Assembly: GCF_001186125.1 (NCBI RefSeq)
Contig: NW_014040439.1
Location: forward strand, 107,749 to 147,285
DNA: 39,537 bases
Reading direction: 5' to 3'
Source of the DNA: Sphaeroforma arctica JP610
Taxonomy: Eukaryota
Positions 3,701 to 34,900 of the stretch are shown here, piece by piece (the first letter of the stretch is position 1; each line of letters begins with the position of its first letter). The position numbers and the translations under genes were made by a program. The notes beneath the pieces are model-generated. The model saw only the letters and a program-made list of their open reading frames with translations, searched no databases and was not told the DNA's origin.

Positions 3701-4636
3701 AGATCGATTTTGTTTGTGTGTTTGGATGAGGTACCAATATAATTTTACGAAGCGTAGTATAGCTGTGCGGGAGCGCCTCAGCACGTCATCGGAGAAGAGC
3801 TGCCGGCGCATTTACACCACACAAGATAATATTCACTCAAATCCAATCAGTTTCGATACACACAGACAATTTATCCGGTGCAGTGCATCAGTGTGTGCGC
3901 TATTTAGTGTAAATGTTTATTGTATGGCCTGGTGCACCAAAGTGAGTAGCATTACAAGTCTGTCTCTCCAGAAGTGTTGGTGGTGTTAACCACCCTATAG
4001 TGTGCAAAATCGATACTATTGGTCTGCAAAAGTATTTCCTCATTTCAGGCTGATCAGTCGTACTGCGACTGCGATGCTTCTAACTGAGTTGTAACAATTT
4101 TATCTTGTCCCCGACATGCTTCTAGATATTGTATTGGAGTGTCTTTCGGTCAGGTTTTCTTCTGTATATATCCATCAGTCAGTATATACGCACTCTAGAG
4201 TTATATACATATCCCACATAAGGCTCAAAAACCACACTATATTGCTGATCAGACTGGAGAAGAAAACATTTTTGGTATCCAACCCACGTGTGCGAATGGC
4301 AGTGGAAATGGGGGTTATTGGCGTGTGCCTATTCCTGGGCGTAGTTCCAGCGCTCGCCGCGTTCCCACAGGTATGTCACTACTGTCTAACTCTCTGGAGG
4401 TGCTTGCGTCTATTTCAGATTTTGCACGTTGTGCCATTCAAAATGCTGTGGATATTCATAAAATTTTATTATTTATAACCACTACTTCATGTGTACCATA
4501 CTCGTGTCTCTCTCCTCTGATATACTTGTTACAGATTGAATCTATGAATGCGGATGATATGGAAGAGCAATTCCAGAATCTAAAGGATTCTAACGGCCAG
4601 AAGGTGGAAAAGTTCGTGTTTAATAAAGGCCTGTAG
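772..4636 (+). CDS. SFXN: Sideroflexin (mitochondrial tricarboxylate/serine carrier family), 5'-partial; exons 772-949, 1689-1770, 2304-2382, 2869-2997, 3383-3497, 4253-4370, 4535-4636
   Basis: GT-AG introns with consistent phases join sideroflexin motifs: LWDSKTLIDSAIHPD, FSAFVPAN, HWTNQSYNAAVNYCNRNAS, LPFLACAVSGVLNIGLMRRSELETGVTVFD, GQSIKAA, LAAFPQ and the diagnostic C-terminus FNKGL*. The start codon lies upstream of the window. Confidence 0.93.
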
Positions 4637-5699
4637 ATTCGCCGCAGGGTGACTGGCCCCCCGAACCCAACACCGCGCACGTACAGTCACGGCGAAGTGT
4701 ACGTGTAGAAATGGGGGATTCTTCACGAACATATAGCCGTTTATGCTGTATCAGATAAATCCACTGACTCGAACACGACGACCTGAGCAACATAATAGAA
4801 TGAAAATTGACAGTTAGTCGGATTCGCGCGCATGGAGTGGGGCTGTGTTAGCTAATCACGATCACCCGCCACAACAAAATCTAGAGATGAGATGCGATAG
4901 AATATTTAACTGGTCCGAGTAGTTAGTGTGAACCATGATTGGCAGTGCCAATTGCAAGATTCTCAAGCGATAAAGTTTATATTAAATATAACTCTCCGAT
5001 CTGTGCAGTACGTAACGAATTTCAAAGCCATTTTCATGCAGTGCTGTCAAGATAAGAAAGCCATTATACGATGGATTCTCATGTTTTATTTTTCTTTCCC
5101 GGTCGCGTAGAATTACTCTGCGCTTCCAACAAATGATAAACTATTTATATGTATGGTTGGTGGCAAGGTTCCAGATTGAATTGCGGATAACTATGAACTC
5201 GGGTGCTATTGCTCGAATGACTACAAGTTTATATTTTGTCAGTATATATTTTGCAAACGAAGCACTCAAGAACTCATGTGCAAACATCTGTGGTATTAAA
5301 TAAAAAAAGCAGTGTCTTTCCGTGGTAATAAAAAAAACAGTCTTGACGAAACGAGCTCGGTACCAGTAGAAAACTCTAGCAATTTAAACACAACCTTACC
5401 AGATACGAAATGTAGCACCATATTTGTGACAATTCAGATTCTTCTATGTTCTGAAGCTTGCTAATGGCACACCATATATGCGCGTGTCAAAATCATTTCA
5501 CAATTAATCGTTTTTTATTCCAAATAATTATGATTTCGATTGCGCTACTGATATAGCAGATACGCACCTAGATACAGATATCCATCGCATAACTGTGACG
5601 GCTGACGACGGCCAGTAAGTCCTAAATTTACCACCTTCAATCTGCATGGGTTGTCAACTTGTCGCCGACGGTAGCTTTTTTATCATTGACCTATCCTTT

Positions 5700-6190
5700 C
5701 GCCAATACATACATGAAGAAAAGACATTGCTGACCAACATCTGCCGGTATGTTCTAATGAATTGAGGCTAGATATTTGCTGGCCTGCTGGCAGCCTGGTT
5801 TTGTGGATTCTGGAGTCTAGAGTCTGGACTACTTGTGACTGTGTTGAAAAAACAGGTATTGGGTATGGGACGTTTTGCCGTGGGTCTTGGGTAGCAGCGC
5901 ATTGGCCAGCACTGTAGCAGCTACAGTATGATAATAGTAGTCCATGTCCCACGCAGCACGAAACGCTTGTGCTCGCGGCGGCTGGTAGAGAAGGCCGCAC
6001 CTTAGTCCGACCGTGGACCCTCTGCGGGCAATACACGTTGTACAAGTGTCCATGATGTCCGCTAGCAGATCTTTTGGGATGTTCCATCTCAACTTGTCTT
6101 GGAACAGACGTCTGAGACGTATGGGTCATGCACACATATGTGTGTCATGCAGCGACCAGACTAACTGCAGCACCGTTACCGGTTTATCAT
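5700..6190 (-). pseudogene. Retroviral/Ty3-type integrase: HHCC zinc finger and start of the core, disrupted
   Basis: VLQLVWSLHDTHMCA*PIRLRRLFQDKLRWNIPKDLLADIMDTCTTCIARR...GLLYQPPRAQAFRAAWDMDY matches the H..H...W...CxxC, GLLxP and WxMD (first catalytic Asp) pattern. Confidence 0.7.
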
Positions 6191-6315
6191 TCACCACACT
6201 CTTTCACGTGGCCACGGACTGCAAGGCGTCCAAACACATCCTGTAGCGAACGGGGTGGTTCCCACTATGGACGGGGAGTCTCGACGCGTTCAACCCCTAC
6301 CAGGTGTCGTCGGTT

Positions 6316-6837
6316 GGGCTGCATAACGGTTTCTGAATGAGCACGAGGTGGAACGACGTCTTTTTCTTGCGTACCCCTAGCGTTTGTCCCTCTTGTTTCT
6401 CCCAGAACTTTTGTTCATGCTGCAGAGTTTGTATTCTGTTTCTCCGTCCACTCACGGACATGCGTCAATGGTTCTGGAGTCGTCATCATCCACCCAACTA
6501 GTACTCAGGTACTGTTGCCAAGAAATCTCTCGTTTTGCACGGGCCTCTTCCAAGGCCGACTGATATTCCTGAATCATGTCCCTCATTGACATGGGAAGCC
6601 TCAACACGTTCGTTTAAACCCTACAGACACCCTCGGCTCCATCATCATCCATATGCAATGAGTACGGCCTCGTTTGGACTGCATAGCGAGTTTCTGAATG
6701 AACAAAAGGTGAACGTCGTTTATTCCTTACTTCCCCTCGGCGTTTTGTCCTTCTTGTCTCTCTCGGAACTCCTACTCTTGGTACACAATTCGTATTCTGC
6801 TCCTCCGTCCACTCGCGGGCATCAGTCAATGGTTCTG
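6316..6837 (+). repeat. Diverged ~160-bp direct repeat (6316-6477 and 6676-6837) in the linker of the minus-strand element
   Basis: Shared blocks CTGCATA..G.TTTCTGAATGA, TATTCTG.T.CTCCGTCCACTC and GTCAATGGTTCTG. The minus-strand peptides REWTEKQNTN and REWTEEQNTN match. Confidence 0.8.
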
Positions 6838-7674
6838 AAGTCTCTGGATGAGGTCGCCGAAGGCGACCTGGTCTTCATCCATCTCTCTAGAATCTTGGTG
6901 TTCCTGAACTGTATCTCTCATTGACATCGCCGGTCGCATCAGTCCGGTTTGCTTCTCATTCCCATCCTCATCCCATGACATCGAACTACCGATCAGTATA
7001 TCGGTTGTCGTAGTTCTCTGTTGCCATCCACCCCCCCAGCCGCGACAAATGTATTGCCTTGAGACTTACCTCATATTGGCCTCGATATCGTTGGAACGAC
7101 AGTCCCCACCACCATCGTCTATCCACATATCATCCCCATATACTGGCCCTGTGTCGGCCTTCAAAACTGCTCGTCTGTGCTGGAAAACACTGCCACCGAG
7201 TTATCACCGTCACTGTAGTCTGCGACTACACTCTTCCCGTCCGAAGTGATCTGTTCAGACGCTGGCACGGACAACGACCGGTCACCTACTGGAACACGAG
7301 ACATGATATTTTCCTCTGAAGCTGGCTCACGGTCAATATTCACAGGCGGGCAGCTACTGGTCTCACTACTGTTCGAGTCCCCCATCCGCACTTTGACCTC
7401 AGGTTCTCACATCGCCAATGGTGCGCTCATAGCTCCCCTTTCTCTTCCTCCTCTAATAGATCCGTCACTTGTCGAAAAGATGCATACACACTATTCTCAT
7501 CCGTGCGTGCTCCCTCCTTAGCAGCTGGCACCTCGACCTGGTTCGGGTAACGACCGCCATACACCGGCCCCAGAAGGCTGCGCATCCTATACGGCCGGGA
7601 CTGAAATCTCAGCTGCCGCCAGAACGGACGCGGCAAGTAATGTACTGTATCGGTTTAATGCAGTCACTACGCAA

Positions 7675-8018
7675 CAAGCTAATCAATGTACAACCCCAAG
7701 AGTGTGACCCAAGCGGCCGACCGTTCTCACCAAAGAACGTATCGTGCTCCGGCGACACCACTATCGGTACATTACCCATCATAGCGCAATACCGTGGAAA
7801 CCACATAGTACCAGTCCACACCGGCTTAGCCATCACAACCCTGGCCATTGCAAAGGAATGTAAATACGTCAAGAACGCGTTTATCTCATCCCAGGGCCTT
7901 GTTGGTTATAATATCTAACGATGCTCTGCATGCGTTCGTTAGTGACAGTAGCAAACCCATCATACCAAAGCCTGCCGTAGAATAGATTTAGAATACTACA
8001 AGGTACTGCAAGTCGCAT
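7675..8018 (-). pseudogene. DIRS-type N6-adenine DNA methyltransferase domain, disrupted
   Basis: MRLAVPCSILNLFYGRLWYDGFATVTNERM (DxFA...N motif), a frameshifted N.PW, then DEINAFLTYLHSFAMARVVMAKPVWTGTMWFPRYCAMMGNVPIVVSPEHDTFFG...W. It is collinear with the MTase at 18390-18770. Confidence 0.6.
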
Positions 8019-10306
8019 TGAACTTGGTTCCCGAATCAACGGAAGCTCTGACCGATAGCTTACATCGTTTCACATCCTGCGAGTCCTCTAAGTAACGATC
8101 GTGATGAACAGGGAGGTATTTCCGATATGCAATCGTGCCAATAGGTACATTTGCAATATCCTGGCAATTATCCTTCACCTCTTCTGGTGAGCGTGAACGA
8201 CGATGGCGTTGTAGCTTGTCACGAAATAGATTCGCAGCTACTTGACCTTGATTAAGCTGTTGTCGTGGAGATTTCATCACTCTACGAAATACATCAAAGG
8301 AACGCTTTGCCGACGACGACAAGTTCTGGTGAGTGTCCATTGCAAAGTGCAAATCCGCTGGTTTCAAACCAAATTTCACCAAAATAAATTTAAACACAGT
8401 TGTCGATTCATGAGTACGGCTTGAATCACATAAGTCGGTCGGCATTTCCTCAAGTGTCGTAATTTCTTGTGCTCTGATTTTAAGCGTGTTTCAATATCCG
8501 CTCTCTGGGGTATCGGCTTCGTGCGGCCAATTTTGCGGTTCGTTGGGCTGATTTGTTTATCTCGTCCGCCACGCTGCGAAGTAACTGGCTATTTGGTGTC
8601 GTCCATACCTGTTGAGGAACCCATTGTAGTTGCGATGTTGGTGCTACCTGTTGCTCAAGATGATTATCACCCGACGCTGGCTGGTCCGTGTTCTTGACAG
8701 TAGACTTGTCACTATTCGCAGACATGTCACTATTCGCCGTTGAAAATCCACGACGTTGGCGGAGTTGTCCACGAATGAGATGAATAATATCCGTGGCCTC
8801 CTACACATGCGTCAGCATCCTCCAGTGTCCATCTCGATCAGAAACCCACCCCGGATGCTGTTTGGCCATATCCAACGTAGAAAACGAGTGTTGGGCCTCC
8901 GAAACCAAACGGGCCAGCGTCACGTGAATTTCTGCCTTTTCTTCATTCTCAGGTGTCAGATCCAAAGAAATGCTGACTCTACCTTAGTACAGATTTAAAG
9001 ACAATCGACGATGAACTCCGAGCAGCTGTTTCGATAGCAGGTCACAAGCTTGCTTACCTACCTCAGGTACCGGTGTAGCACTAGGTCTCATCATTAGCGT
9101 AAGCAAAATTAAAAATCAACTAAATTGTCTTTGGTTTGTTTGGTCTATAAAGAATGTAGTGTAATAAATACAGTAGTTCGGTCACTTAAAATGTAGTCGC
9201 GTGTTACGTCTGAATAAGTGGGCTCAGTCAGAAGTGTCGATATGAACGGCGCGACTGCTGTATTTATTAATCACGTTCATATGTGGGATGACATTCTCTC
9301 TGACAACGGGTAGTTGTGTGTTAAAGTGCAATGCAGCCTGAGACCTGTAGTCTCATTGTGAAATTATCCGTATCTATGGTTTTGGTCTCCTAGTTACTAA
9401 ATTCTGATGACACCCGATGTGTCATCCTGCTCTCTAACTATATCCTTTATTCCACTATATGGACCGGTCCTCTGGTCCGGTCCTCATGTCCGGTCCTAAA
9501 ATGTACGCAGTGATTTCTAGCTAACTCTGATTATGATGGACTGGCTGAACACCCACACACCTGAAAGTGTCGTACATTTTGACGAGACACTTATGGTCGC
9601 CATAGATTTACACAACGAATTTGCACAGTACGCATTGGTCCTACCTCAGCTACTAGCAACATTTCATACATCATTAGAGAATCGTCGCCCTAATGTAACT
9701 TGTTTAAAAAGTCTATTAGAAACACGCTACTGTAATTGTATCAATCACAAGCGCTTGAACACTGGGGGTCAACCTCGTGTGCAACATTGCAGAGACTAAG
9801 TCTCATCCAGTTGTGACTCTGCACACATCAACTGCAAGTATGCTCATGTGTAGCATATCAAACTGTACGAGCCCCTCAACTCATGCGGCTCCCAACGACT
9901 CAACATAACTGAGTTAAACCTCAGCCCCAAAACCGGTTAACCTCCCACGAGAAATATCATCAATTCCATCACTGTTACTTCACCACGAACCTCTCCCACC
10001 ATGGATGGTGTGGCCAAAGATATCCACCCAGTCAACTCACACGTACATCCGCTTGTTAGTCTTGTTAGAATTTTATCACCACTAAATTTTTTACCAAGTC
10101 ACCAGAGGATTTTCCACTTATTACATAAATTCAAATTTCCAGATAGAGAGAACTTAGATATCATACGCAGCATGCTCACAGAAGGTGCCAACAAAGGAAA
10201 TGTAGGCACGCTTCCACCTGCAATACACAAACCTCTCACTCAGCTACAGAACACGCCACCCAACTCCAGACAGTCATATCGATCAGGAGCTAGCTCATAA
10301 TATCTC

Positions 10307-10700
10307 ATGAGTCCCATACTCCTGGACGAGGTGAAGACCTGGCCCTACTATTACCTGTCCCCATTTGGTATCCTTCAGAAGATCCGTAGCGATGGCTCGG
10401 TGAAGCTTCGCTGTATTCATCATTTATCCTACCCACATGGTGTGAGCATAAACGATCACATAACCTCTCGGAAACTACAAGATCTAAAGCTACGCAAAGT
10501 TCTAAACGCAGTTGCTGCCATACAGTCGACATTTCGCCTAACCAAGATCTAAGAAACAGACATAACTCGATACAAACCGATTCGTCGATGATTTCACAGC
10601 TATCATTCTTCCTGTTTTAGGTACCTGCGACACAGCCAAGCTACAAGCACTTTTCGCACACGTAAAGGTTGTTGTAGCGTTTGATGTTGAAACAATGGCT
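10307..10700 (+). pseudogene. Reverse transcriptase fragment, DIRS/Ngaro-like, internally deleted
   Basis: LSPFGILQK...KLRCIHHLSYPHGVSINDHI resembles the SP.G...K...RLIxxLSxPxGxSxN N-terminal RT block of tyrosine-recombinase retrotransposons. RFVDDF follows near 10580. Confidence 0.55.
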
Positions 10701-10879
10701 TGGAATTCATCGGTAATCGCCATCGCGTACTGATGAGGTGACGGCATAATTTTCATCTGATTCTATACCAAATGAAGAAACCAAGGCAGAGGTTCAAGCT
10801 ACGCTAGACTGTTTTGTATTTGAGACTCAACAATCGATCCCTACGTTGGATAAGGCCATACAACCTATTGAAAGGATTA

Positions 10880-12491
10880 TCAAGCGGAGTAACAACTTAG
10901 GGCTGCTGACACATGTATAAAAAGATCAGGGTGTCATCAAACTCCGAGTACGATCTATCGACTTGCGACACGCGGCGCCAACCCTCCGTATAAATGGTGA
11001 GCTAATCACGCCGACGCTCGCAGACGCACCCTGGAACACACTTTACCTCTCCCTGAAGATGGTGCCTACATATGCCAAGCCAAAACGCTCCGAATATCCG
11101 GGGTTCCCACTTTCTCACGGAATACCAGGGATCAACCTCGCGTGACATATGGAATCACTGTTTGCAGCATTGTCCCTTGGTATCGCCTCTTTCGCTGGCG
11201 ACACCCCCCCCCCCGAACCGACTGGTGCTGTTCAAAACATTCATCCTATCTACGGCTACATATGGCCTGAACATTATTGCCTGGGCTCCGCCTATATGGA
11301 AGGATGATNNNNNNNNNNNNNNNNNNNNNNNNNNNNNNNNNNNNNNNNNNNNNNNNNNNNNNNNNNNNNNNNNNNNNNNNNNNNNNNNNNNNNNNNNNNN
11401 NNNNNNNNNNNNNNNNNNNNNNNNNNNNNNNNNNNNNNNNNNNNNNNNNNNNNNNNNNNNNNNNNNNNNNNNNNNNNNNNNNNNNNNNNNNNNNNNNNNN
11501 NNNNNNNNNNNNNNNNNNNNNNNNNNNNNNNNNNNNNNNNNNNNNNNNNNNNNNNNNNNNNNNNNNNNNNNNNNNNNNNNNNNNNNNNNNNNNNNNNNNN
11601 NNNNNNNNNNNNNNNNNNNNNNNNNNNNNNNNNNNNNNNNNNNNNNNNNNNNNNNNNNNNNNNNNNNNNNNNNNNNNNNNNNNNNNNNNNNNNNNNNNNN
11701 NNNNNNNNNNNNNNNNNNNNNNNNNNNNNNNNNNNNNNNNNNNNNNNNNNNNNNNNNNNNNNNNNNNNNNNNNNNNNNNNNNNNNNNNNNNNNNAAACAA
11801 ACTTACTCCACTTTTGTGGCCTGCTCCCCGCGCGACCATTCGCGGACTACCTCGGAGGTTGCCTGGGAATACAACTCGACTCAATGGCCAGCACAAATTC
11901 ACTCACCCTTCTGACGCAACCCGCCTGGGCCCACGACAAACCATCACTGCGCTTCCCGTACAGTATCTATGCTCACCTGAGAACTGTACACATAACCACG
12001 GGCGGGCGTACACCCGATCATGTAGCCCTCCGCCAACACTGTGACGACATTAGGAAGAACTCAACAAAACGCTGGTCCAATAAGGAAATCGTGGCAATGG
12101 CCCGGCACCAATACTACTACCAAATGGTCATGAGTACAAAGCCGGGCACGACAGCTTCAACCGCTGCTTAGAGCCTACACCAATCTGGCTCTGTACTACG
12201 ATTGAAACGAATACGTACATGTTCACATTGCTCGACTACCGCACTGACGGCTATATCTGCTGTGTCTACCCCGGTAGCCCCAAATTCACCACCAGCCACT
12301 TTACCTGCATCCAACAATTGATCCGACGCATCCTGGTAGGCCCGAAACTGCCGCACATTGGCCCTGACCTCCTCCAGCAAATACAGGAGCGCCACGACTT
12401 CCACGGTATCTGGACCCTCCACGAATACCTTGGATCCTTTTTCCAGCATATAGAACAACCGCCGTACCTTCTCTCTGACACATCAACCTGA
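10880..12491 (+). mobile_element. Decayed non-LTR (LINE-like) ORF2 C-terminal remnant spanning an assembly gap
   Basis: NLGLLTHV.K, LRINGELI and RLVLFKTFILSTATYG are typical end-of-RT and post-RT LINE segments. A degenerate Cys/His knuckle ICCVYPGSPKFTTSHFTC lies near the 3' end. Confidence 0.5.
11309..11794. other. Assembly gap (N run)
   Basis: Run of n. The other gaps are at 20740-21461, 26994-27262 and 28967-28986. Confidence 1.
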
Positions 12492-13806
12492 CACATCAAC
12501 AGATGTTCCCCATACCCCGGCTAATCACGCTGTTGAAGTACTACTTCCACATTTCGGTACAAACCCAGTCATCGCGCTTGTTGGTTCCGCCTATGATCTT
12601 CCAGTACAGGCCAGCCAGCACATACCGAGTGCATTCGTGGTCTGATGCGGCATTGGCTTATACCCAACCTTGCTCTACTCGGTATTGTAAATTTCGATGG
12701 ATATTTCTATGTTTTAAACTATGTTATATAAAACAAGATACAATTTAAGTCAGTTAAGATTTAGCAGTGGTAGCTTGTGTAAGAATAATCGGGACTGCCT
12801 CTTGTAGAGTATGGAGAGTAGCTGAACGGTACGAGACAATAGGATACAATAGACCTCTTCTCAAGTACGGTTATCTCAGCTAGGAAAAGTCCCTAGACTG
12901 CGAGAACCGAACTGAGTCTTTAGTTGTGTTTTCACTAGACTCATATTTACTTGAGTGTTCCTCGGGAGTCCCGGTATAGCTTACCGGTTCTACCGCTAAT
13001 ATTTCTGATGATTCTAATATCGGAAATATTCCAATCCTAATTCCAAAACTCAGTATTTGATTATTCTGGGTTTTGGGATTTGGATTGGCTTTTTGATAAT
13101 CTGGTCCCTAGTAGATGCTACACTCTTGGTAAGAGCCTTAATATCCTCGATCACACAGGACGTACCAATTTTCACTAAAAGCACTAAGTGTTCATGACTA
13201 CATGCCTAATTTGTAGATAGACAGAAGAACGTAAGTCAAGTTAATACATTAGCTAATATAAATAAAGTTCCATCTGAAGAAAAGATAAAGAAAAAGAAAA
13301 AGACTTATTGGATTTTGGAGATTGGCGGGAAGACCAAAACCTGTAAGTAGTAGTTCAGATTATAAAATTTGTTTATAATATCCTACATTTACTATCGTCT
13401 CAAATAGGTCCATGTAAATGAGTCATACCAAATACTCAGGCTATTGGAGCCATCATTTTTTTTTTAGAACACTTTGGAAATCTTGGAAAAAGAACTTGTA
13501 TTAAATTATTCTCAATACAAATAAAAACCAATGTGATATCTCATTTGATCTTGATATTTTATACTGACCGGAGGCCGTATATCTACATAAATAGCTTTTA
13601 GAACTACGGACGTACGTGAAGGTACAATCTAGTTCGTAAAGTGAAAACCAAAGTAAACCGCTTTCGGTCATGGCTTATCGAGTAAGTATTTGCCCATATG
13701 TACGAGTTCAAGACTCATGTTGTACTCTTATGTCATTTAGTATTTGGTCCAGTAAGAGGAGACCGACTTATACATATTTTTAAGTTTATAATACGCTATC
13801 GATATT

Positions 13807-15113
13807 ATGACAAAAGGGAAGAATAGGGCAGCGAATGTAGTTAAGGCTGCAAACGCGAAAGAATTTGCTGTAGGCGAAGCGAAGCAGAAAACGCCCCCGG
13901 CACCACCAGAAGCTGCTGAGGCAACTGAGGTCACGCCAACACAAGTAGCACCAACTCTATCAAACTGGGAACGTAAGAAGTCGGCTGATTCGGGTGTAGG
14001 CTCTTCAGTTGGGAGCGTGACATCTGAGCCGCTGAAGCCACCAGCAAAGAAGTCAAGGTCCAGAAAGGGAAGGTTGAGCTCGGAAAATTCAACTTCAGAG
14101 AAAGTACGACATGCACTGGAATCAGATGTATCATCTCCACCAGTAGACACGCGCACCTATCATACCTATCATATGTTATCCCGAGATATGAGAACTTTCT
14201 TGAAAAACTACCAACCAATGGTACATGAACTGAGACCCACTAAGCAGCGGAAGAAAAAGCAAGCCGCAGCGAAGGATCAAGGTCATGGTGAATCAGGAGA
14301 AAATTACTCGGAGGATGTGCCAATAGCACACAAACTGTTGGATCAGCCCCAAATCAACGTAACGGAGGAACAACTGCGTTTCGTGGATATTGGTCCGGAT
14401 GATGTTGACCATACACTTCACCGTCAGGACGACGATTCGGACACCAGGCTGGATTCACAATTCTTGCGTTTACCCAAACACCACTCCGACCGGCTTGGCG
14501 ACAGAACTTTGATCTGGGCCATCCATACCAGACTCAGATTGATATCCAGGAGGAGGGTCAACGAGAGCTGATCCGACAGCGGGCCAACCGGGCATAGGTG
14601 TTAATGGGTGTTAAGACCAAGCCGGATGGTACAATCTCACTTAGGTTTGTAATGAATGCAGCGGTAAGAAATTTTAGGCTCGATTTGTTTAGAGATTCTA
14701 ATTACTACAATCGGCTAGTAGCAATGAAGACTGACGAGGATAAGCAGGCACGCAAACGTTTTCGTCAGTTTCAAAAGATACTACCGAAGGTATTCGGAAT
14801 TAAGAGAGATGTAAGTTTTGCACACTTAATTTGGTACGCAATTTGCGATCTTCTTGGAGATATTCCCGATTTGATATCGAACCATTTGGCACTCTATCAA
14901 GCCATATTGGTATTTGAGATGTTGTCCAGACAATGGAGAGGCAAACACAATCCGATCTTCATCATCCGAAGCTCAATCTTCTCCTGGATTGGATGCAACA
15001 ACAATGTCACGAATGGCATCCGAACAGGAGCCTGTACCAAATCCACCTACGGAAGGCAATCCACAGAATGCCCCAGAGGTAGTTCCGAAGGACAAACCGA
15101 CCGAAGAGCCTAA
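13807..15113 (+). pseudogene. Unknown 5' accessory ORF of the retroelement (basic, S/P-rich N-terminus followed by a globular-looking segment)
   Basis: ORFs 13807-14571 and 14598-15113 have protein-like composition and are co-oriented immediately upstream of gag. No recognisable domain. Confidence 0.45.
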
Positions 15114-16486
15114 ACCTGATCAGGCGGAAGCAAAAACATATTTGTCATCATCGGGAGACAGTTCGCCCCCAGCGGCTATCCCAACGACGACACAAGATGC
15201 TGATCCATCACATGCGTTCATACACATAGAACAGGTCGATGGATCAAAGAATGAGGCAGACATGTGACTGCAAGGTATCAGATCACTCCAGTAGTGATTT
15301 GAAAATAGCTGAATTCTCTGTTTAAATGAACAAAGCTGAGGCTGCTTCTCTCGAGGCGATGGATCAAGGTAGGATTGATGCCGCTAGTCTTTACATGTCA
15401 ATGGCTGCGCACTTCCAGACCAAGATTGATTCAGAACTAAGAGTGATTCAGACCGAGAAGGCTGTGGAAGGCAAGAAGTTTGTAAAGGACATAGGTAAAC
15501 TACCAACGGCATACATATCTGATCGAAAGGACCGAAAGGATCCAATCGATACTAGCAGTCTGGCGTTGTTATCTAGGTATTTGAAGGAGTTTGACAGATT
15601 ATGCTTACAGCAAATCTACGTAAGAATCTATGGTTCGAAGCAGCGCAGCAGAGCTTTAAGCCGTCCTCTTACAAGTACAACAAGTTGGAGAAGGCGAAAC
15701 AAGCGATCACTAAGCTGAAGACGTGGAAAGAGCAGAGTGAGATGATCGTTATCTATTCTCGACGGACCCTCAACCGGAATTGCTTGTATCGATCATGATA
15801 CCACCGGAAGAAGGAACGCCAGTGTCCCACTACCTACTGGAGTTGAACACACACATGTCAAGGGCCCAGACTCGGAAGATATCACCTGATATGCTAATCA
15901 TGTGTGTACTATGGGTGCAGACAATCTTTTGGTCGAGCCTGCATAGGAAAGATCAAGAGATCCTGTATGCTGATATGCATCAATCTTACCCGGACAAGGT
16001 ACGAGAGATCTCCATTGAGGGACCTACCTACGGTATTATGAAGCTTGCTGACTTAACCTGGGCTGAGTTTTACTCGAGAGCAGATCAGACGTTTACGAAA
16101 CGTCCCAGTTCCGTGGTGAAAGTCACCAATGTCCAGAAGAAGGTCGGAGGCAATCTCGCCGGAGGATCAGGCATGGTCGAAACTCTCAGTCTACTAATGG
16201 AGGTCAGAAGGTGAACAAGGGAGGTGACAAAGGTGGCCATAAGAACAAAAATACCAATGGTTCCGATGGCAACAAGAACAATGTCATCCCTAAGGGTAAC
16301 CAGACCGCCAGAAATGGACCACCTGCAGGCAATCCGAAGCCCAGGCATAGGGAGGTCAAGAACTGTAGTGAGACTGATTGCAATTGGCGAATGACCCAAC
16401 ATGAGCCGAATGGCAGATGGAATAGGAGGCACGCAGACAAGTGTAAGCACTTTGTCACGAAGTGTGCCGACTTGCAAGGGTTTTAG
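14914..16486 (+). pseudogene. Gag-like ORF, frameshifted
   Basis: It sits directly before PR. Helical-looking segments are followed by a G/N/K-rich tract and a Cys/His cluster (CSETDC...H...H..KCKH...C) at the nucleocapsid position. Confidence 0.55.
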
Positions 16487-16579
16487 GGTTGCAAGGTGCA
16501 ACCAAAGGTTGATGTTAAGTGACAAACATACCGAGTCTTGTCACTACGACAAAAGAACGCACCTCAAGACGAGCGTGTC

Positions 16580-18350
16580 ATCCTTGATATACGAGTTAAT
16601 GGACATTAAAAAAAAGCGTTGTTGGGTCCAGGCTCGCAAATTTCATGTATATCATCTAGATTCTGTAAGATGACAGACATAACTCGTAAGTCAGAACCAA
16701 CTATGTTGAAACTGGCTGACGAAAGAGAGATCACTTGTAGAGAGATGGCGATCGATCTTAGGTTTACTTTGACAGACCAACGTACTACAGTTACTAAGGC
16801 AGTCATATGTAACACATCACCTGACTATGATCTCATAGTGAGCATGGGTGATTTATTGTCACTAGGTATAGTAAATACAGGCTTACCTATGAACATTGAA
16901 CCACAGAAGGATCAGTCGGACGATAAACCTTCGAAGACTGTGAACGAGATGATCCCTCACTTCACAAAGAAACTCAAGGACTTACTTTTTGAAAATGACA
17001 AGACCAAGATTACTGACTGGGCTAAGTTCAAATTCAACAACGGATATGTTAGTCTAATCTGACCAGAGTGGATTTCTCGAAGTTGAAGCGTCCTACACGT
17101 AACTATGTTGCATGGCGTTATGAGCAGGTCGTACGTGAGCAGGTTAAACTTGGTTAGATGATGGAGTGATCGCCGTCAACTACGACCCGACTCCCGTCAA
17201 CCTAGCGCTTTTAGTCGTCGACCAGTTCAACTCTGACGTGACGCTGAAGAAGGTTTGGGTGTGTTTGGACATAAGCGCCAATAACGCTCTGATACCGACA
17301 CACAATTTTCACTTACCAAGGATAAACGAACTACTCAGGCGTATGGAGGGAGCTAATATATTTTCCACTATCGACCTGAAGCAGGGCTACCACCAGATGA
17401 AGATGTACAAGCCACATCGGAAGTATTTCACCTTTACCTGGGAGGGTCAGTAATATTTGTTCAAAGGCGCCCCCTTTGGGTTACACATTTTACCTGCCTT
17501 CTTCCAGCAGATAATGCAAGATTTGTTTAGGGACATGTACAATGTACAAGTATACATTGATGACATTGTGGTACTCACCAAAACCAAAGAGGAACACGAC
17601 AGGGTTGTGCGAGAGGCCCTAGACAGACTCAACAAGCACAACTTTAATGTCAACAGTAAGAAATATCACTTCGGTGTCAACGAGATTCAACTGTTGGGTT
17701 ACCGAGTATCCGGGGATGGAATCATGATCGATCCCGGGAAGGTCGGACACTAGCTAGACTGGAGAACTCCTACCACAGAAAAGGATGTCAACAGCATGTG
17801 CGGACTCGGCAACTTTTTGTCTGACGGGGTACCACACCTGGCGAGCTACTTGAAGCCCTTTGGACATTTGAGATGTCATAAAGGCAAACTAGGCGCACTG
17901 TGGACCAAAGACTGTGATGACGCATTTAAGCAGCCCAAAACAGTGATTCAGCAGGCACCAGTAGTCCAGCCACCAAAGTATGGTATTCCATTCATGGTAG
18001 CAACAGACGCGTCCGACATGGCACTCGGCGGCGTTCTGTATCAAATGATTGAAGGGAAACCAAGATATGTACAGTTCTTTAGCAGGGCTATGAACTCGTC
18101 TCAGATCAATTACCCAACCGTGCAACAAGAGCTTTTGGCTATTGTTACTGCACTCACTCATTTTAAGGACTATCTATATGGCACACACTTTAACGTGCTA
18201 TGTGATCAGAAGTCATTGCAACACCTAAAGGACATGAAAAATAACTCACAGTTAGTCAGTCGGTGGCATGACACAATTGCGAAATTTTCTTTCGGCATAA
18301 CACACATACCGGGTTTTCACAATCACTTACCCCACATGTTGTCTCGCTTC
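16580..18350 (+). pseudogene. Pol: aspartic protease, reverse transcriptase and RNase H (Ty3/gypsy type)
   Basis: PR: VILDIRVNGH*KKALLGPGSQISCIS (catalytic Asp replaced by Gly) and YDLIVSM. RT: FSTIDLKQGYHQ, APFGL, VYIDDIVV (17553), IQLLGY. RH: FMVATDASDMALGGVLYQ, FFSR, YPTVQQELLAIV, VLCDQKSL, RW, HIPG..N...MLSR. Confidence 0.92.
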
Positions 18351-18389
18351 GTACCAGATTGTAACAATATGGTTAGGGAGTTACTTAGG

Positions 18390-18770
18390 TGGTTTAAGAT
18401 CGCTGACAACACACATGGACCACATACCATAGATATGTTTGCCGCACATCATAATGAGCAACTGCCGAGGTACCGGACATTGGAACATCCGGAAGGAGTC
18501 GGATTCCAGATAGACTTGTCTAACGAGAATGCCTGGGCAAATCCTCCATGGCTATCAATACCACAGTTACTAAATTATATACATATTCAAGATGCTACCA
18601 TCACGTAGTGTTGTCCCCTAAGACACTCAGATAAATGGCTACCACAGTTGATCTCAATGATACAATGTGGGCCGATCTATGAGGATAGAGAGGTAGATAC
18701 TTTCTATGCCAGGGTACCCGTGCAGTCCAGAAGACGCCTTGGCGACATACTATAATATGTCGAATAGGTC
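18390..18770 (+). pseudogene. N6-adenine DNA methyltransferase domain (DIRS/phage Dam-like) fused in frame after RNase H
   Basis: WFKIADNTHGPHTIDMFAAHHNEQLPRY (SAM-binding DxFA at 18432) and AWANPPW (catalytic NPPW at 18540-18551). It continues ATIT*CCPLRHSDKWLPQLISM...GP...DTF, then after a frameshift KTPWRHTIICRI. Confidence 0.85.
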
Positions 18771-19429
18771 CTGTTGGAACAACCAAGTGGACTCCATCCG
18801 AGACTTTCAAACAGAAGGTTGATGAGTCCAAGATTCCACTCTTGAATCCTAAGTCTCAAGCAGAGACTGGGACAACACAAGCACCTGCAGTATGTGTTAC
18901 CGAGATACAGCCAAATTCAAAGGAATCAAAGAGGAGCGCAACACTAGCGAAAGCCTTTTACAAGAAGATACGGTCTGACAGGGAAACTGCATACCAAGCA
19001 GAGACTCGATTGTCTTTTGAGAGACTAAAGTAGTAGACGTATTTCTATATACGTTAATAACGTTTTACGTCGTCAGCCCAAGAGTAATTTTGGGTCAGCC
19101 CGAGAGAACGTAAGAGTAATTCGAGACTTCTTCTCAAAATATTCTATTTATAGAATACGGGCCACCGGCTAGCCGAGAGCCGAGGTCCGAGACTGAGTGT
19201 AGTATCAGAGAATATGATATATTTATTTCTGGAAAATATATCCGAGTGCTAGTGTTCTGCATAAGGTTTCTCATACTGATCATATAAGTTTTTACCCTGG
19301 CCAACCTAAGTGGTTGAACACTAGTACAAACACCATCAGTATATGACTTAGTATAATAAATTTACCCAATATGCGTACAACTCGGACCAAGAAAATAAAA
19401 TAGTTGCACGCAATATTTTATTCATGACG

Positions 19430-19590
19430 TACACACATCACATACTGTCGTAATAATCTCTAATAATTTATGCTACATAGCCAACATATAGCGCATATAT
19501 CACATACTGCCATACCAACACATGCTACATCATATGCTACATAACCAGCATATATCACATTCTGCAATATCAGCATATGCGCCATATAAT
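19430..19590. repeat. Degenerate CATA-rich short tandem repeats
   Basis: Recurrent ATGCTACAT, CATATATCACAT and CATACTG units. Confidence 0.55.
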
Positions 19591-21652: not shown

Positions 21653-22523
21653 CCACATATTGATCCATTTTGATCTATAAACTATAGAGCGGACGGGGAA
21701 CATGACCCTGAGTCATCAAAATCCACCATCGTGGACATCACCGGACCGGAAGCAGAAGAGCGGCAAAAGACAACACCGGAGCAAGCTTTAAAGGAGAGCA
21801 AGAAAAAAAAGAAAAAAAAAGCCTTCTCGAGAAAGTTACCTAATCCGGAAGCGTTGAAACCTCCTAATAGATTATCATCAGCTAAAAATACCCCTGACGA
21901 AAAGCTGCATGACCATGGTGACACAGCCGGAATACTGCATACAGGCAGTGAAGACAAGAACGTCGACTGGGATAGAAGCACCGACAGCAAACTTGACTTA
22001 GACTGGCAGTGATAACATTGGCGATGATGAAGATGGCGACGACAGAGAAAATGAAAAGGAAAACATCCCTGACGCTGACAAGCCCGACACGGAAAATAGA
22101 AAGGATAACATACCTGACGCTGACGCTGACGAGCCCTATCTACCAAAATTGATACCCAAAAAGGATTTCTGGGACTGTGCCATACAACGCGAACACGATT
22201 ATGACAAAACAGATAAGAATATTTCAAGAGGATGTATCTGGGAGGAACAACTACATCCAGATAAAAAATTCAAAACCTAGGCTGAAGCGAGGAGGTTGTG
22301 CGATAAGATTGCTGACATTTGCAATGTGGTGCTATGTAGCAATGTAGACTTGAAGCGAGGTAAAGGGGTGTTAGCTCACAACAGAAGCGGTTCTGCCACA
22401 AAATTGAGAAACCGCAATAAGGTTAGAAGATATTTAGCTAAGCAGGTAACTCACAAAGTACCAAAACATCGCATGAGGCATTCCATAAAATGTGACTGCA
22501 AATTCAAGGTAAGGCTATTTATG

Positions 22524-22667
22524 TGCCCCTCTCTCGCCTCCTTCCAATTAAGCGCCCCTCTCTCGCCCACCTCTAAGTTAAGGGCCCCTCTCTCGCCCCC
22601 CTCAAATTAAGCGTCCCTCTCTCGCCTACCTCTAAGTTAAGCGCCGCACTCTTGCCCCCCTCCAAGT
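22524..22667 (+). repeat. Intronic ~30-bp minisatellite
   Basis: TTAAGCGCCCCTCTCTCGCC units, about 5 copies. Confidence 0.85.
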
Positions 22668-23508
22668 ATAACACACTTAATAATATTTTATGCTTTCAGC
22701 TTAACTTCGTGCACACGGACGCACCACCAGGTTTTGACCCAACTCCATTTATAAGTGGTGAGAAGTATGACGGTTGGATAGCGCCAGGCGTAAGTCATTT
22801 TATACACACTGAAGGATGCAACCCCTGCAATGAACAAGCAACTGTTTCGTTTGTAGTAAGTGGGAAACTGTCAAATGGGACAGATTTGGACTCGAGGTAA
22901 GCAACTAATGATGTCAGAAAAGGTATATTTTATGTGGAATATAATGGTGTTTAGAGAGGAAGAGTGCAAAAGAGGTGAATTTAAAAACAAATTTCATTAA
23001 CAAATTATATATATGCAGATGAAGAACATCCTAGTTACCATGGCCATGCGGAAATGCCCGACGAACGAGTTCCGGAAGTATATACTTTAGGTGTTTCCAG
23101 ATGAAGTATTCGCTACAGCCCAAACTATACATAACATCCGAGTCGTAAGTTATATCAAAAAAAAATTATCGGTTACTGTTTTATGACACACCATACATCG
23201 TTTTAGGGTTTAGGGTTATCGTATACTTATGTTACATAACCTGCCACACGCTAAATATGTGCTTATTTATGCATGCACTTATATTCAGAACGCTATCAAA
23301 TACGCCTTAAGATACAAAATGAGCAAACAACTTTTTGACGATGTTAAGACCTTGCCGTCTTATAATAAGAGGTCAAGCACATTTGCACCTGGTGAGGAAA
23401 TATCAGAGGAGTGCATCGAGGAGTTTGTGAAGATAACAGAATGTGAAGAAGCAATGAACTCGTAAGCATTTTAGGGTTTGTACGTATAAACCTCGATGTG
23501 GTGTCTCT

Positions 23509-23728
23509 TTCTAATGCATAACTCTAATACATAACTCTAATGCATACCTCTAATCCTCACCTCTAATGCATACCTCTAATTCTCACCTTTAATGCATAAC
23601 TCTAGTGCATACCTATGCGTACCTTTAATGTATACCTCTAATGCATAACTCTAATGCATACCTCTAACGCATAACTCTAATGCATACCTCTAATGCATAA
23701 TTCTAATGCATACCTCTAATCCTCATCT
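23509..23728 (+). repeat. Intronic 13-bp minisatellite
   Basis: CTCTAATGCATA(A/C) units, about 16 copies. Confidence 0.9.
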
Positions 23729-24798
23729 CGGGAGCGACTTTCTCAACTTCTTCAAATTGGCACAATCTATGAACCCGCACCTGTATGTTCGAACTCTGCG
23801 CGACAAAGCGACCAATGTTCTCAAATGTGTTCTTTGGATGACGAACACCATGAGAAAGAATTATAGAAATTTTGGTCGTATTGTCAGCATGAATGCTCGC
23901 CAGAAGGGGAATAAGGAGTGGTGGTGGCAAATCTCTATATTGGTAGGGCCAGGCAACGACGGCAAAATCAAGTACTTCGGTGCTATGCTATTCTATATGG
24001 AGACGAAAGAAGTATATAGATTTGCATTAGATTCTCTACATAAATCAATGGGCGAGAGGGCGCCATTGAAAACTAAGATAAATTTTGCCGATGGATTTTT
24101 GAATCAATCCGATGTTAGAGAAGGACAGTTTTATTTTGCTGATAGCTACAATACATGGCAGACTATCAGTAAGAATCTTGGTAGGTACTACAGTGGGCGG
24201 GTGAAAAAGGCCTTGGACAAAGATATGCACGCCACAACACAACAACTATGTGACCATTACCTTGATATTGCCATTGATATACTGTCTCAGAAGAATGCTG
24301 CCACTGGGGTTCGATTCTTGAATAAGATGAAGCAATCATCTGAACACATGTTTGAATGGGGTATAGCTGGAAAGCTCACAATGGGGCTTAAAGGGTCACA
24401 GATGAGTGAATCGTCAAATTCTCAACTGGAAGCTTGGTTCAAGTCTTTGATACTTACAATGCCTAGACTTTTCACTGGCATATGCAAAATTGCCAATCAG
24501 ATGCATTCAGCCAGTAGAATAGCAAGAATCAGGTATAATATGATATGCAACATAGGGAAGTACGATGATGACGGCCCGCCTAGATTCCACGAGCCCGTTC
24601 ACATAGCAGACTGCAGAAAGTGGGGCAGTGAAATATGTACCGAGCGGGTTTCAGTCGAGGTTGATTAGGCCAGATCGTATCGTATCGACTCATCCCAGGA
24701 CCTCGGAGAAAATGTGACGTCCTACAAGTGCGCGTACGACGGAAGAGAGGACCGATACCTAACCGTTTTAGGGACAGGAGAAAGGTAATCGTTCACTA

Positions 24799-29663: not shown

Positions 29664-30099
29664 ATTTCTGATACGATTAATGATATAGAATCAATCAGAT
29701 CGGAAAGCAGACATACCATCAAGCATTATTTATACATATTTTGCATTTGCACGCATGCGCATGCGCATTATCAGCTTACCTTGATGTTACCAGTTATGGC
29801 TCCATTGATGCTCTCTCTTCTCTCTCCCCCCGTAAAGTTTGCTGTATGTAGCCAGATCAATTTCATAAATTTAGCATTATTTCATAGCAAACATCAGAAA
29901 GGCTACTGACACAAATACAGCTTATTTCACAAGATACCTCAGTTATCAGCTACGTATGCGATATACGATGCTAAAAAAAGAGTATTATTTTTCGCTCGTC
30001 TATATACACGTTAATTTATTTATTAATTTATTACCTACATCTTTCCCGCTCTTTCCAACAGATCAATAAAAACATACTACCTTTTTATAGTAAGAAGTG

Positions 30100-30399
30100 T
30101 ACGAGAGAGGGGCGTTCAACTTGGAGGGGGGCGAGAGAGGGGCGCTTAACTTAGAGGTGGGCGAGAAAGGGACGCTTAATTGGGGGAGGCGAGAGAAGGG
30201 CGCTTAACTTGGAGGGAGGCGAGAGCGGGGCGCTTAATTGGCGAGAGGCGAGAGCGGGACGCTTACCAGAGGGAGTCTTTACTGGACGCTTAACAGCCGT
30301 AGTCTTAACGGGACGCGTAACAGCCGTAGTCTTAAGAGTTAGTCATACCAGCCGTATTCTTAAGAGTTAGTCATACCAGCCGTAGTCTTAAGAGTCCCC
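30100..30399 (-). mobile_element. Orphan terminus of a related MULE/foldback-like element
   Basis: The minus strand starts GGGGACTCTTAAGACTACGGCTG, with tandem CAGCCGTAGTCTTAA(GAG) units. About 5-6 GCGAGAGAGGGGCGCTTAA units follow, the reverse complement of the 22524-22667 array. Confidence 0.55.
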
Positions 30400-31901
30400 G
30401 CTAAAATCACGCTAATTAAATCTTTAAAAAAGCAAAGTAAACTCGAGAAAGTATAAGTATGAGACTGGTAGGAAACTGGGCCTGAGGTGGTTTATATAAT
30501 TTTATTGTCACCGGTGCCGTATAAAGACATGCGTCCGAGAGTCTACGACTTCAACATTTTACCAGTAGTTGCTTTTTTAAAACCCCCCAATATTTTAACT
30601 GTAAATAAACTAATATGGATTTTAAACAAGTTCGAACCCTCGTCCTCGAGTCGAGTCCTCGACTTTGGGTCTTTGAAGGCTCGACGAGACAAGACAAGAG
30701 ACTCGAGACTGCTCTCTTCTTCGACTTTCGAGTTTCGAATCCTGCGCGAAAAAAACTAACTTTTCTGTTTTGTAATTTTTGAGAAGAAAAAAAGGTTAGC
30801 ATTTTGTTGGTTGTTTTTGTGAGTTGCAGTTTTGCGCCCTCTGAAGTCTGAACTTCTGAAGTCTGAACTTTTTAACCTCCGCATTTTAAAAAGTTTTCCT
30901 TTTTTTTAAAAACTAAACAAATAGTAAATACTTTCCAACTATAAACTGAATACGAAGGAATTTTTGACTTTTAGTGTTTCGTTGAAAAAACGGTAATGTG
31001 TAGCAGTACATTTAAAACATCGTAGTGAAGCACATAAGTTTTAATAAAAACTACTCGAAGTTTTAAAATTGAGTGCCATTCCAAATATAACTCGACGCAA
31101 TTTCGCTTGTATTTACTGTTTTGTGTAATTTATTTTTCTTTACTTTTTGTATAGCCTTCTGAAAATATCTTATTTAAAAATAGAACTTTTTTGGGGGCGT
31201 TGTTTTTTTGATACCCTGTGTATTTATGTACAGATGTATTTATGTACTGTATTTGTAAATATTTATTTATATACATAACAAAACAAAAAAGAAATATTTT
31301 GTTTTTTTATGAAAAATAAATAAATATACAGAGCCTACTACATAGAGTAAGCCTACTAAATAATAAATTTTTACTATAAAAATAAAGTTTATGGCAGAGT
31401 TGGAAAAATTAAAAAACCCCCCCCAAAAAAAGTTATGTTCAATTCATATTTATATGTATTTAAATATAAATATTTTCTTTGTACAGCGAGAGGGAGAGCC
31501 GGAGAGGTTCACGACTCGCGACTCAGGAGATGACTTCGGAGAATATATCGGATGAAGTGAACCCGCATGGATTCAGTTGCATCGCACTTAATTTACAATT
31601 ACGTGTCCGTTGGTTAGTATCTCCTTTTTATTGTATTCGCATCAGTACACCATAGTCGTCTGTAGGATAACAGGAGTAAGTGGAGACATTATACTTTAAC
31701 TAGATGAACCCAAACAAGGTTCGATAATATAGGCACATACTCACACTCACGACGCCTTTAACCTCGAAATATACAAGTTCACTCGCCATTAAATTTGTCA
31801 TAGAATATACACCCTCCTGTTCTACTTAATCTCAGGGCTGGCACACATATTCGTATGAATTTTAATTGATACAAATATAACAATTACGCGAAAGTCGAAC
31901 T

Positions 31902-34900
31902 ATGCTTGTACACCGATTGCTAGCACTGTTTGTATCCGTGCACGCCTCGCTGTCTTTGTCTATCTCCGACACACAACAACGGCAACAACTTGAATATGAT
32001 GGAGAGAGACAATATCGACAAGATACACCACTTTACGATAAATCACACGGCTCTTCTGTAAGCAGGAGGCAAGTATTATCTGAATGTGCCACCGAGCCTT
32101 GCAGACGTGGTACGTGTGTGGATGATGCGCAAGGATTCACTTGTATTTGTCCCGAAGGCTACAAGGGATATACATGTATCATAGAGATAGGCGGGCTTCT
32201 GGATGTACCGGACTTATCTCCAAGTCCATCTAGTACTCCATTGCCATCTCCTATAGCGATTCCGACTTCTATTCCAACTAAAACACCATCAGCAGCACCA
32301 TCAGCATCGAGTCACCCTACACAAGCGCCATCGACCACGCCCAGCCCGCTACAGCTCGTAAAGGGAATCAATGTAACAATCGCAAAAACTGCGAAGATTG
32401 GGACAGGTGTTACAATTGGGGATGATGTGACAATTGAACAGGACGTCGAATTGGGCGACTATGTGGAGATTGCAAGTAATGTAATCCTGTATAGAAATAC
32501 AAAGGCGGACAATTACGTAAGGATCGGTATTGATGTATCGGGTGAACCTAACTATCATTATCGACGAGCAGTTGGTGACGAACGCAGAGCTCTAACCATA
32601 ATCGGGAACAATGTTAATCTTCAGACCGCCTCAACTGTCGCCGCCGGGGCTAGTGTTTGTATGTGTAGTTTTATACAAGGATTATGTATATTTAGGATTG
32701 CTCAGTTTTGTCCTCGCTAACTATTTGTTGTTATGCTTGCGCTGTATAAATAATGACAGTAAAAGTTGAAACGCAGACATTCAAATGCGCCTGCAAAGTG
32801 CTTGTATAATTTTTGCTTTAGAATTGTCGAGTTTTGTATGCGGCCTGCACCAATATTATTTTAACTGTATCTGCATCCTTGTACGTCACAACATGTGTGT
32901 AATATCTACACTGCAACGAAAAGGTATAGTTTGTTATACATGTTTTCGAATCTGATGATCGTGGTTGGGAGTAGCAGTAGCCGAACGGCCTCAAATTACA
33001 TTCATGTGTGTAACCGTGAATGATGGCGCGTCAATATTTGACAGTATCTAGTCAGGCTTATAATTATGTACTTCATCAACCTTTATGTCACTGTATTTGC
33101 TGTGCTTGAATTTCAAAAATCGAGGTTTACAAAGTTCTTATCCCGTAATATGTGTCCAATGATGTCGTAGCCCCTGTGAGTATATTTGCACGTGTTATCA
33201 AAGGTATGCATATTGGGAACTTATTATCTATTTACCTTTTTCAACTTTTTTCCTTGCATACCTTCAGCTAGATACGCCACAATCGGAGAAAACTCTATCA
33301 TAGGACCCTCGACTGTGTTGGCGCAGTATGTTGATGTGGGCGCAAATACAGTTGTGGGGAGCAATTGCTCTTTAGGATCTTTCACCACGATCGGCGAAGG
33401 CGTTGCGTTGGGCCCGCTATCGAAGGTCGATACAAAGGTTATCATTGCAGATAATGTCAATATCGAGGAGGAGTATGTGCTTTTTTTTCTCCTTCGGCTT
33501 TCTCAGGGAGGACTGTTAGGTGTTGCAGGCACGTGATGATATAGTAGCCTCGTTTGTGTGCATCTCCAAATTTACTGTACGAATATTATAGCGACTCGTT
33601 CAAGCTACCTGAAAATTTGTACTTGCAACCTGAGTCGCACACCTTGGTATGTGCTATGTTGATCACTTAAATCCTTTTTTGAAGACAGTGTGAATCGAAG
33701 GAAGATTACAATCTCACAGCATTTTAATACTTGCATCACTCTTTAGATTGACAATTGGGAGAGGCTCAACAATAGATATCAATTCGTTCGTAGGTGCGCG
33801 CAGCACCATCGGAGAATCGGTGACCCTTGGATCTGGTAGGTCGTACACGGTTGTGTGTGATATCTACCCTTTTTGATTTTTTTTCATGAGTTTTGGGCCG
33901 AGTTTGAAGTGTTGGGAAACTCAATTAATTCTGTACAAATTCAATAAGGGAGGAAACGAAAACTCTACCCAGCCCCCCCCCGGTGCAAGGTGGATTTCCC
34001 CCCCCACTAGATTATCGTTAATTGTCTTGAATAAACAAATTCCCATCGTACGCATTCTCTACTTTTCAGACGTTGCTGTGGGCCCGGATACCGTCATAAA
34101 GAACGGAGCAAAGGTGGAGAACAACGTAAAGCTGGGAACCGCAACAGTCGTCGGTGATAGTGTGGTGATACCATATCAGACGGTTGGCGCCGATGGGCAG
34201 CAGTTTGTCGACGACACTTCTGTCTCGAGTATGTGAATGTAGTTTTTGTTCTGACACTTCTGTCTCGAGTATGTGAATGCAATTGACGTTCTGTCCTGCT
34301 AGGTGTAAATGAACTCGCTGTTCTAGAATTGAATGTACTACTGGAATACCAGAATAGATTCCAGTGGCGTTTTTCGATTCAAATTCTTTGAATCTAGTGT
34401 TATCTACATCGCTTGCTATGAATGTGTGATCCGATGGCGCCGTGCTCTCATATCACATAGAGCGAAATACTCACCCAGCGTGCGGTATAGTCGAGTCTAC
34501 CATGGTATGCATCTGATCTTTTTTTAACGTTTATTTGCTTTTACTTGTAATTGTTCTCTACTGCATTGTTGCGACGATTCTGGCTTGTACGCGTCTCACA
34601 TTATGCCAGCAACCCTCTAATTTTTAACAGTCAAACCTTATAGAAGTAAAATACGTCGCTTACATTTAATTTCGTCGTACAAACAGTGACATCAATAGTC
34701 GGCGCAGTTACCGGTGTAGTCGCGGCCCTCTTGATTGTCGGGCTTGGCATCTGGTGCTTTTTTGAACGTCGCAAACAGCAGGATATCGACAGATGGACTG
34801 GCAAGAAATCTAGCGAATCTATCGACTGTGAGATTTTCGAGACTGAGGCTCCGGTCTCAGTATTGCGCAATGTACGCGCTACATAGTAAGTTGCCGGGTG

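Follow-up and report, generated by a model that had tools for sequence, protein, structure and literature searches.

The window, a stretch of 39,537 nucleotides from Sphaeroforma arctica JP610, very probably carries a dead Ty3/gypsy retrotransposon copy that is truncated at the 3' end. Intact relatives of this element encode a polyprotein of protease (PR), reverse transcriptase (RT), RNase H (RH), a Dam-like methyltransferase domain (DAM) and integrase (INT), in that order. On sequence comparison, the copy likely belongs to the Ichthyosporean DAM-LTR lineage. Recently, Fernandez-Moreno et al. described Ty3/gypsy elements with DAM domains and named this lineage, listing Pirum gemmata, Abeoforma whisleri as well as Sphaeroforma arctica as its hosts and assigning it a conventional gypsy organization that lacks a chromodomain (bioRxiv 10.64898/2026.05.21.726589). 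The element type, the lineage and a model of cDNA marking are already described in that May 2026 preprint. The analysis presented here places a decayed copy in relation to intact family members, weighs what the methyltransferase domain may do, and reports a chromodomain in most full-length members of the clade. Two intact relatives, here called P0004 and P0165, serve as references in the following outline of the locus.

13792-16486 (+): broken ORF pieces, likely the gag region as judged from position only; covered by many related contigs from four runs
16547-17059 (+): decayed aspartic protease and the linker after it, with a stop at 16607 (Asp_protease_2; similarity to P0165)
17056-17148 (+): beginning of the RT, set in another frame by a frameshift on either side (tblastn over 31 aa: P0004 55%, P0165 61%)
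17148-17714 (+): Ty3/gypsy reverse transcriptase, with a stop at 17451 (RVT_1; RT tree)
17754-18347 (+): connection and RNase H, with a stop at 17751 just before (RT_RNaseH, RT_RNaseH_2)
18363-18769 (+): Dam-like (PF05869) domain, predicted N6-adenine methyltransferase (Pfam, PHROG 111, fold of an intact relative's domain)
18770-19012 (+): beginning of the DAM-integrase linker, truncated there (tblastn end 18991; contig departure 19012)
19013-19345 (no strand assigned): high-copy repeat piece adjoining the truncation point (loose ends before 19018 and past 19334-19348; depth falls after ~19365)

Six-frame translation reveals a stop-free frame at 17754-18608, with an ATG at 17796, that leads from RNase H directly into the Dam-like domain. 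The motifs ATDAS, ELLAIV, CDQKSL and HIPG start in this frame at 18000, 18129, 18201 and 18303, respectively, and MLSR occupies 18336-18347; the motifs of the Dam-like domain, IDMFAA (18429) and WANPPW (18534-18551), follow. In Pfam, the ORF matches RT_RNaseH (E 1e-29) and RT_RNaseH_2 (E 3e-30). Dam PF05869 matches the same ORF with E 0.0017, under the curated cut-off, and the Dam part reaches E 1.6e-4 when the stop is read as X; an 8-residue gap lies at the beginning of the domain. The RT matches RVT_1 (E 3e-26) and has YIDD at 17553-17564. Further upstream, the protease matches Asp_protease_2 (E 0.004) and shares 42% identity over 170 aa with the corresponding region of P0165; Gly replaces the catalytic Asp. 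The original prediction, made from the letters of the DNA, had proposed an uninterrupted ORF at 17796-18608 running from RNase H to WANPPW, an intact NPPW motif and a protease; all three are borne out, the last in decayed form. It had also placed the C-terminal half of the methyltransferase behind a single stop codon. This part of the claim stands as far as DTF (18696-18704), which is reached in frame beyond the stop at 18606. It fails for the last PW and its strand (18734-18769), which lie in a different frame, indicating an additional frameshift near 18703.

Altogether, the copy has stops at 16607, 17060, 17451, 17751 and 18606 and frameshifts near 17056, 17148 and 18703, and it is truncated at 19012; it was rightly predicted to be dead and cannot make the protein itself. 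Homology to intact pol ends at ~18991 by tblastn and extends up to 19012 by contigs. At 19012, contigs of other copies diverge from the window and continue like residues 809-820 of P0004, in the direction of its integrase. Thus, the window copy is cut off in the DAM-integrase linker and lacks an integrase, and blastx of the window downstream of 19012 gave no match to integrase or other pol parts. On the upstream side, the broken ORFs gave no useful Pfam match in the five pieces scanned (5/5) and no blastx match, and 15741-16211 had no Atlas match. A repeat finder, blastn and local alignment (score 23 against a shuffled mean of 24.5) found no LTR pair around the truncated copy, and the label of LTR element therefore derives from its protein relatives. 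A TGG-starting stretch near 13745 resembles a primer-binding site by eye and is a candidate for one. Run X1 supplied 1820 contigs that align across 18300-19500, at depths that do not translate into copy number; as 942 of them are less than 95% alike, many diverged copies are implied. The repeat at 19013-19345 showed no match to the 5' flank of the element. In other contigs, this repeat runs on at both sides, and in one contig it forms a 326-base tandem.

The remainder of the window holds other remnants and several host genes. A second, more decayed Dam-like remnant lies at 7672-7994 (-), with a DAM-profile match of E 1.5e-11 for 7672-7899; it falls on a long branch of the same DAM clade, and its surroundings gave no match to RT or RNase H. 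At ~9940-10600 (+), a segment without a Pfam match looks by eye like the start of a Ngaro/DIRS-type RT. A 324-aa ORF at 23694-24668 (+) has a weak RNase H-like match to ZSWIM1-3 (E 0.003) and lies between the arms of an inverted repeat (22520-22672 and 30085-30265); it is possibly a remnant of a Mutator-like transposon. The host genes comprise a tyrosine kinase at 36776-38719 (+; PF07714, E 1.5e-47), in keeping with a holozoan host, an EGF and hexapeptide-repeat ORF at 31881-32717 (+) and sideroflexin-like exons at ~4190-4630 (+). No tRNA was found in the window.

Intact relatives show how the live family is built. Searching with the DAM part recovered P0004 (1376 aa, from a Logan contig), which is 66% identical to the window copy over 526 aa and in which Pfam recognizes RT, RNase H and Dam together with an H2C2 zinc finger (E 0.04) and, at E 8e-4, an integrase core; its best solved relative is Ty3 Gag-Pol (E 3e-71). 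P0165 (1400 aa), with 62% identity to the window copy over 527 aa, has the full order PR-RT-RH-DAM-integrase, including an rve integrase at E 6e-9 and a protease above the Pfam cut-off. At its protease active site, P0165 has DPG, and its methyltransferase motif reads CPPW instead of NPPW. With 1.84 billion representatives searched, the DAM domain was present in 14 of the best 150 RH-DAM matches, and single-sequence DAM searches returned one protein each. Two of the proteins, P0111 and P0028, are from Abeoforma whisleri. Over PR, RT, RH, DAM and the linker, the window copy is colinear with the intact polyproteins, whose pol order is PR-RT-RH-DAM-INT. Further RH-DAM-integrase(-Chromo) proteins (P0012, P0030, P0034, P0037, P0072, P0120, P0027 and P0168) lie outside the clade of the window copy that is described below; NPP has been lost in P0012 (NIPF) and in P0072.

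Phylogenetic analysis was used to place the RT. The RT tree, obtained from a quick search, has 78 rows. Besides the window copy, these are 15 DAM-integrase proteins (after four near-duplicates were dropped), two partial ones, a random 25 of 58 DIRS-like proteins (RT and Dam without integrase) and 35 of the 99 gypsy proteins that lack DAM. Rows are labelled by domain content and do not include named DIRS references; "DIRS-like" denotes proteins classed as such by domain content and motifs. The window copy groups with P0004 and P0165 (support 98) inside a 12-row clade (SH-aLRT 99) that also holds P0028 and P0111, and a branch with support 99 sets off the 25 DIRS-like rows. The RT of the window copy lies outside the DIRS clade, whose RT would mark membership in that group. 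A DAM tree with 52 rows, likewise from a quick search, recovers this set of 12 with support 96; the agreement between the two trees shows that RT and DAM were inherited together. Local alignment points the same way, with median scores for the window RT of 269 against gypsy (n=35), 108 against DIRS-like (n=25) and 396 against the DAM-integrase proteins.

These trees bear on a reading in which the window would hold either a true DIRS element or a one-off chimera created by a DIRS fragment that is nested within a gypsy copy. Some observations lend it a degree of appeal: the RT-RH-methyltransferase order is also found in the pol of DIRS1-like elements, which encode a tyrosine recombinase and have inverted termini (PMC3266345); the window copy has no integrase; and of the 94 matches to the DAM profile, most have RT and Dam but no integrase. 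We nevertheless regard this reading as extremely improbable, given the colinearity of the window copy with intact DAM-integrase polyproteins and the recovery of one and the same clade in the RT and DAM trees. Moreover, AU tests rejected nesting of the window RT within DIRS subgroups, which were taken from the RT tree itself, in all three cases (p 0.013, 0.002 and 0.016). A further AU test concerns the attachment point of DIRS only: a placement of all DIRS beside the three proteins closest to the window copy could not be rejected (p 0.47). No match to a tyrosine recombinase was found in the ORFs of 13792-19030 or in six frames of 4001-13600, with 19030-39537 scanned partly, and no inverted repeat pair was found around the element; the integrase of the relatives makes a tyrosine recombinase unlikely. 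P0004 and P0165 refute the chimera and DIRS readings.

The preferred reading is a gypsy element with a built-in methyltransferase domain, and the domain itself can be compared at the levels of profile and fold. All 13 aligned DAM domains match Pfam Dam and 12 of them match PHROG 111; a single one matches PCIF1_WW, at E 0.064. The P0004 domain exceeds the Pfam Dam cut-off (30.5 vs 28.1 bits). Its structure model (pLDDT 95.6) finds phage DNA N6-adenine methyltransferases as the best fold matches in a viral library (E 4e-9, TM 0.72-0.81), followed by PCIF1-type proteins (E 4e-5, TM 0.60-0.69). Among solved structures, the best match in two programs is PCIF1/CAPAM (TM 0.69-0.72; Z 10.8 and rmsd 2.9 over 132 residues, vs Z 8.1 for T4 Dam). 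On the model, the domain has an amino-methyltransferase fold. In sequence searches, the DAM profile gave only chance CHK1 matches in the PDB, and tblastn of the window DAM against phages gave one weak match (E 0.8). The original prediction of an LTR-retrotransposon lineage with gypsy-style RT and RH that captured an amino-methyltransferase is thus supported. The RT lies on the gypsy side by tree, AU tests and Pfam, the segment matches Dam profiles and folds, and intact relatives have this domain in the equivalent position with an integrase after it; such a lineage has meanwhile been published.

Whether the domain acts as an enzyme can be approached through its conservation. Between P0004 and P0165, identity is 68% for DAM, 62% for RT and 23% for the linker, and between P0004 and P0028 of A. 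whisleri it is 45%, 46% and 15%, respectively; on these sequence identities, DAM is as conserved as RT. NPPW is present in 11 of the 12 clade members, P0165 with its CPPW being the exception, and DxxA in 12 of 12. This conservation weighs against the view that DAM is a catalytically dead module that binds nucleic acid or SAM and has a structural or targeting role, as does the enrichment of 6mA at such insertions (bioRxiv 10.64898/2026.05.21.726589). A dead module would be in keeping with the CPPW of P0165, with the lack of NPP[FW] in 24 of 84 DIRS-like domains, and with the finding that DAM-LTR and DIRS domains produced no 6mA in E. coli (bioRxiv 10.64898/2026.05.21.726589). In addition, Iyer et al. 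placed the methyltransferase domains of DIRS in the PCIF1 clade and judged them likely inactive (PMC4738411). Taken together, we consider a dead module unlikely.

A different possibility is that DAM is active on RNA rather than DNA and, like PCIF1/CAPAM, methylates the genomic RNA of the element or a cap-adjacent adenosine. The rank of CAPAM as best solved structure in both programs would fit this idea, as would the assignment of DIRS domains to the PCIF1 clade in PMC4738411; PCIF1 is absent from the main text of the preprint (bioRxiv 10.64898/2026.05.21.726589). The viral library argues in the opposite direction, since phage DNA methyltransferases outrank PCIF1-type proteins there, and so does the preponderance of Pfam Dam over PCIF1_WW among the 13 domains. 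Furthermore, of the 482 aa in the CAPAM chain, the model spans 139, and a cap-binding part is not implied. An RNA methylase thus appears decidedly unlikely.

For the live family, we favor a mechanism in which DNA is the substrate. As part of Pol, the DAM domain would be carried into the particle beside RT-RNase H, where it would bind SAM and place N6-methyladenine on new cDNA in its single-stranded or RNA-paired state. Following integration, the AMT1 system of the host would keep the mark, so that the insertion would look like active chromatin and be transcribed. The host and AMT1 part of this scheme comes from the preprint, in which methyl-marking of reverse-transcription intermediates was proposed and in which ichthyosporean DAM-LTRs showed 6mA and expression above other LTR elements (bioRxiv 10.64898/2026.05.21.726589). 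The mechanism as a whole seems plausible, if a shade short of probable. By analogy with PCIF1, a single-stranded or hybrid substrate could be the cause of the negative E. coli assay. PCIF1 is reported to be most active on single-stranded RNA and least active on double-stranded DNA, with hybrids and single-stranded DNA in between (PMC11550742); a negative result in E. coli fits this ranking, which proves nothing for the DAM-LTR domain. The modeled fold may likewise point to single-stranded and hybrid substrates, which are outside the scope of the published double-stranded test. The NPPW-bearing intact relatives P0004, P0028, P0101 and P0164 offer ready test cases for the function of DIRS and DAM-LTR methyltransferases.

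The published account of the lineage can be extended in a second respect. An HMM built from eight Pfam-positive chromodomains from outside the clade detected a divergent C-terminal chromodomain in six of the nine full-length clade proteins (P0028, P0046, P0101, P0164, P0166 and P0256; E <= 0.001, database of 11), two further proteins ending before the integrase. The best match was P0028 of A. whisleri (2e-7), and P0004, P0165 and P0023 gave no match to this HMM. A profile of five tails picked by eye matches HP1 (E 4e-9), and four of these five tails match Pfam Chromo weakly. For a model of the P0004 tail (pLDDT 78), only chromo and chromoshadow domains are among the Foldseek matches listed, none at E <= 0.001. 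The window copy ends before the chromodomain region. A literature search for chromodomains in ichthyosporean DAM-LTRs gave only the preprint's statement of absence. As P0028, a named member of the lineage, has the domain, its presence indicates a gap in the published description rather than exclusion of these proteins from the lineage, and it would amend what has been published on the lineage closest to animals.

The combination of the two domains invites a tentative proposal, somewhat unlikely in our estimation, that ichthyosporean DAM-LTRs are reader-writers: the chromodomain would steer integration, and a PCIF1-like DAM would mark single-stranded or hybrid cDNA in the particle. If correct, this would explain the inertness of the domains on double-stranded E. 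coli DNA, and it would provide the first shown activity for a DIRS or DAM-LTR methyltransferase.

Among known systems, the Ichthyosporean DAM-LTR lineage is the closest to the window copy. Both have a Ty3/gypsy pol, a Dam-like domain and the NPP motif, and the window copy groups with two A. whisleri proteins in the RT and DAM trees; unlike the lineage as described, the window copy is dead and lacks an integrase, and six of the nine full-length proteins of its clade have a chromodomain where the description reports none. The other DAM-LTR clades of the same preprint (Chlorophyta DAM-chromovirus-like, Chloro-Ochrophyta, Pyropia and Euglena) also have DAM within a gypsy Pol. The RH-DAM-INT-Chromo proteins P0012, P0030, P0034 and P0072 have this arrangement as well, and neither tree includes them in the 12-row clade. 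DIRS1-like elements (PMC3266345) share the RT-RH-methyltransferase order and a related methyltransferase domain, but they use a tyrosine recombinase and carry inverted termini, whereas protease, gypsy RT and DDE integrase characterize the window's family. Finally, the phage methyltransferases of PF05869 and PHROG 111 and PCIF1/CAPAM have the fold in common with the DAM-LTR domain; they differ from it in sequence, with 14-21% identity, and in context, the DAM-LTR domain being embedded in a polyprotein.
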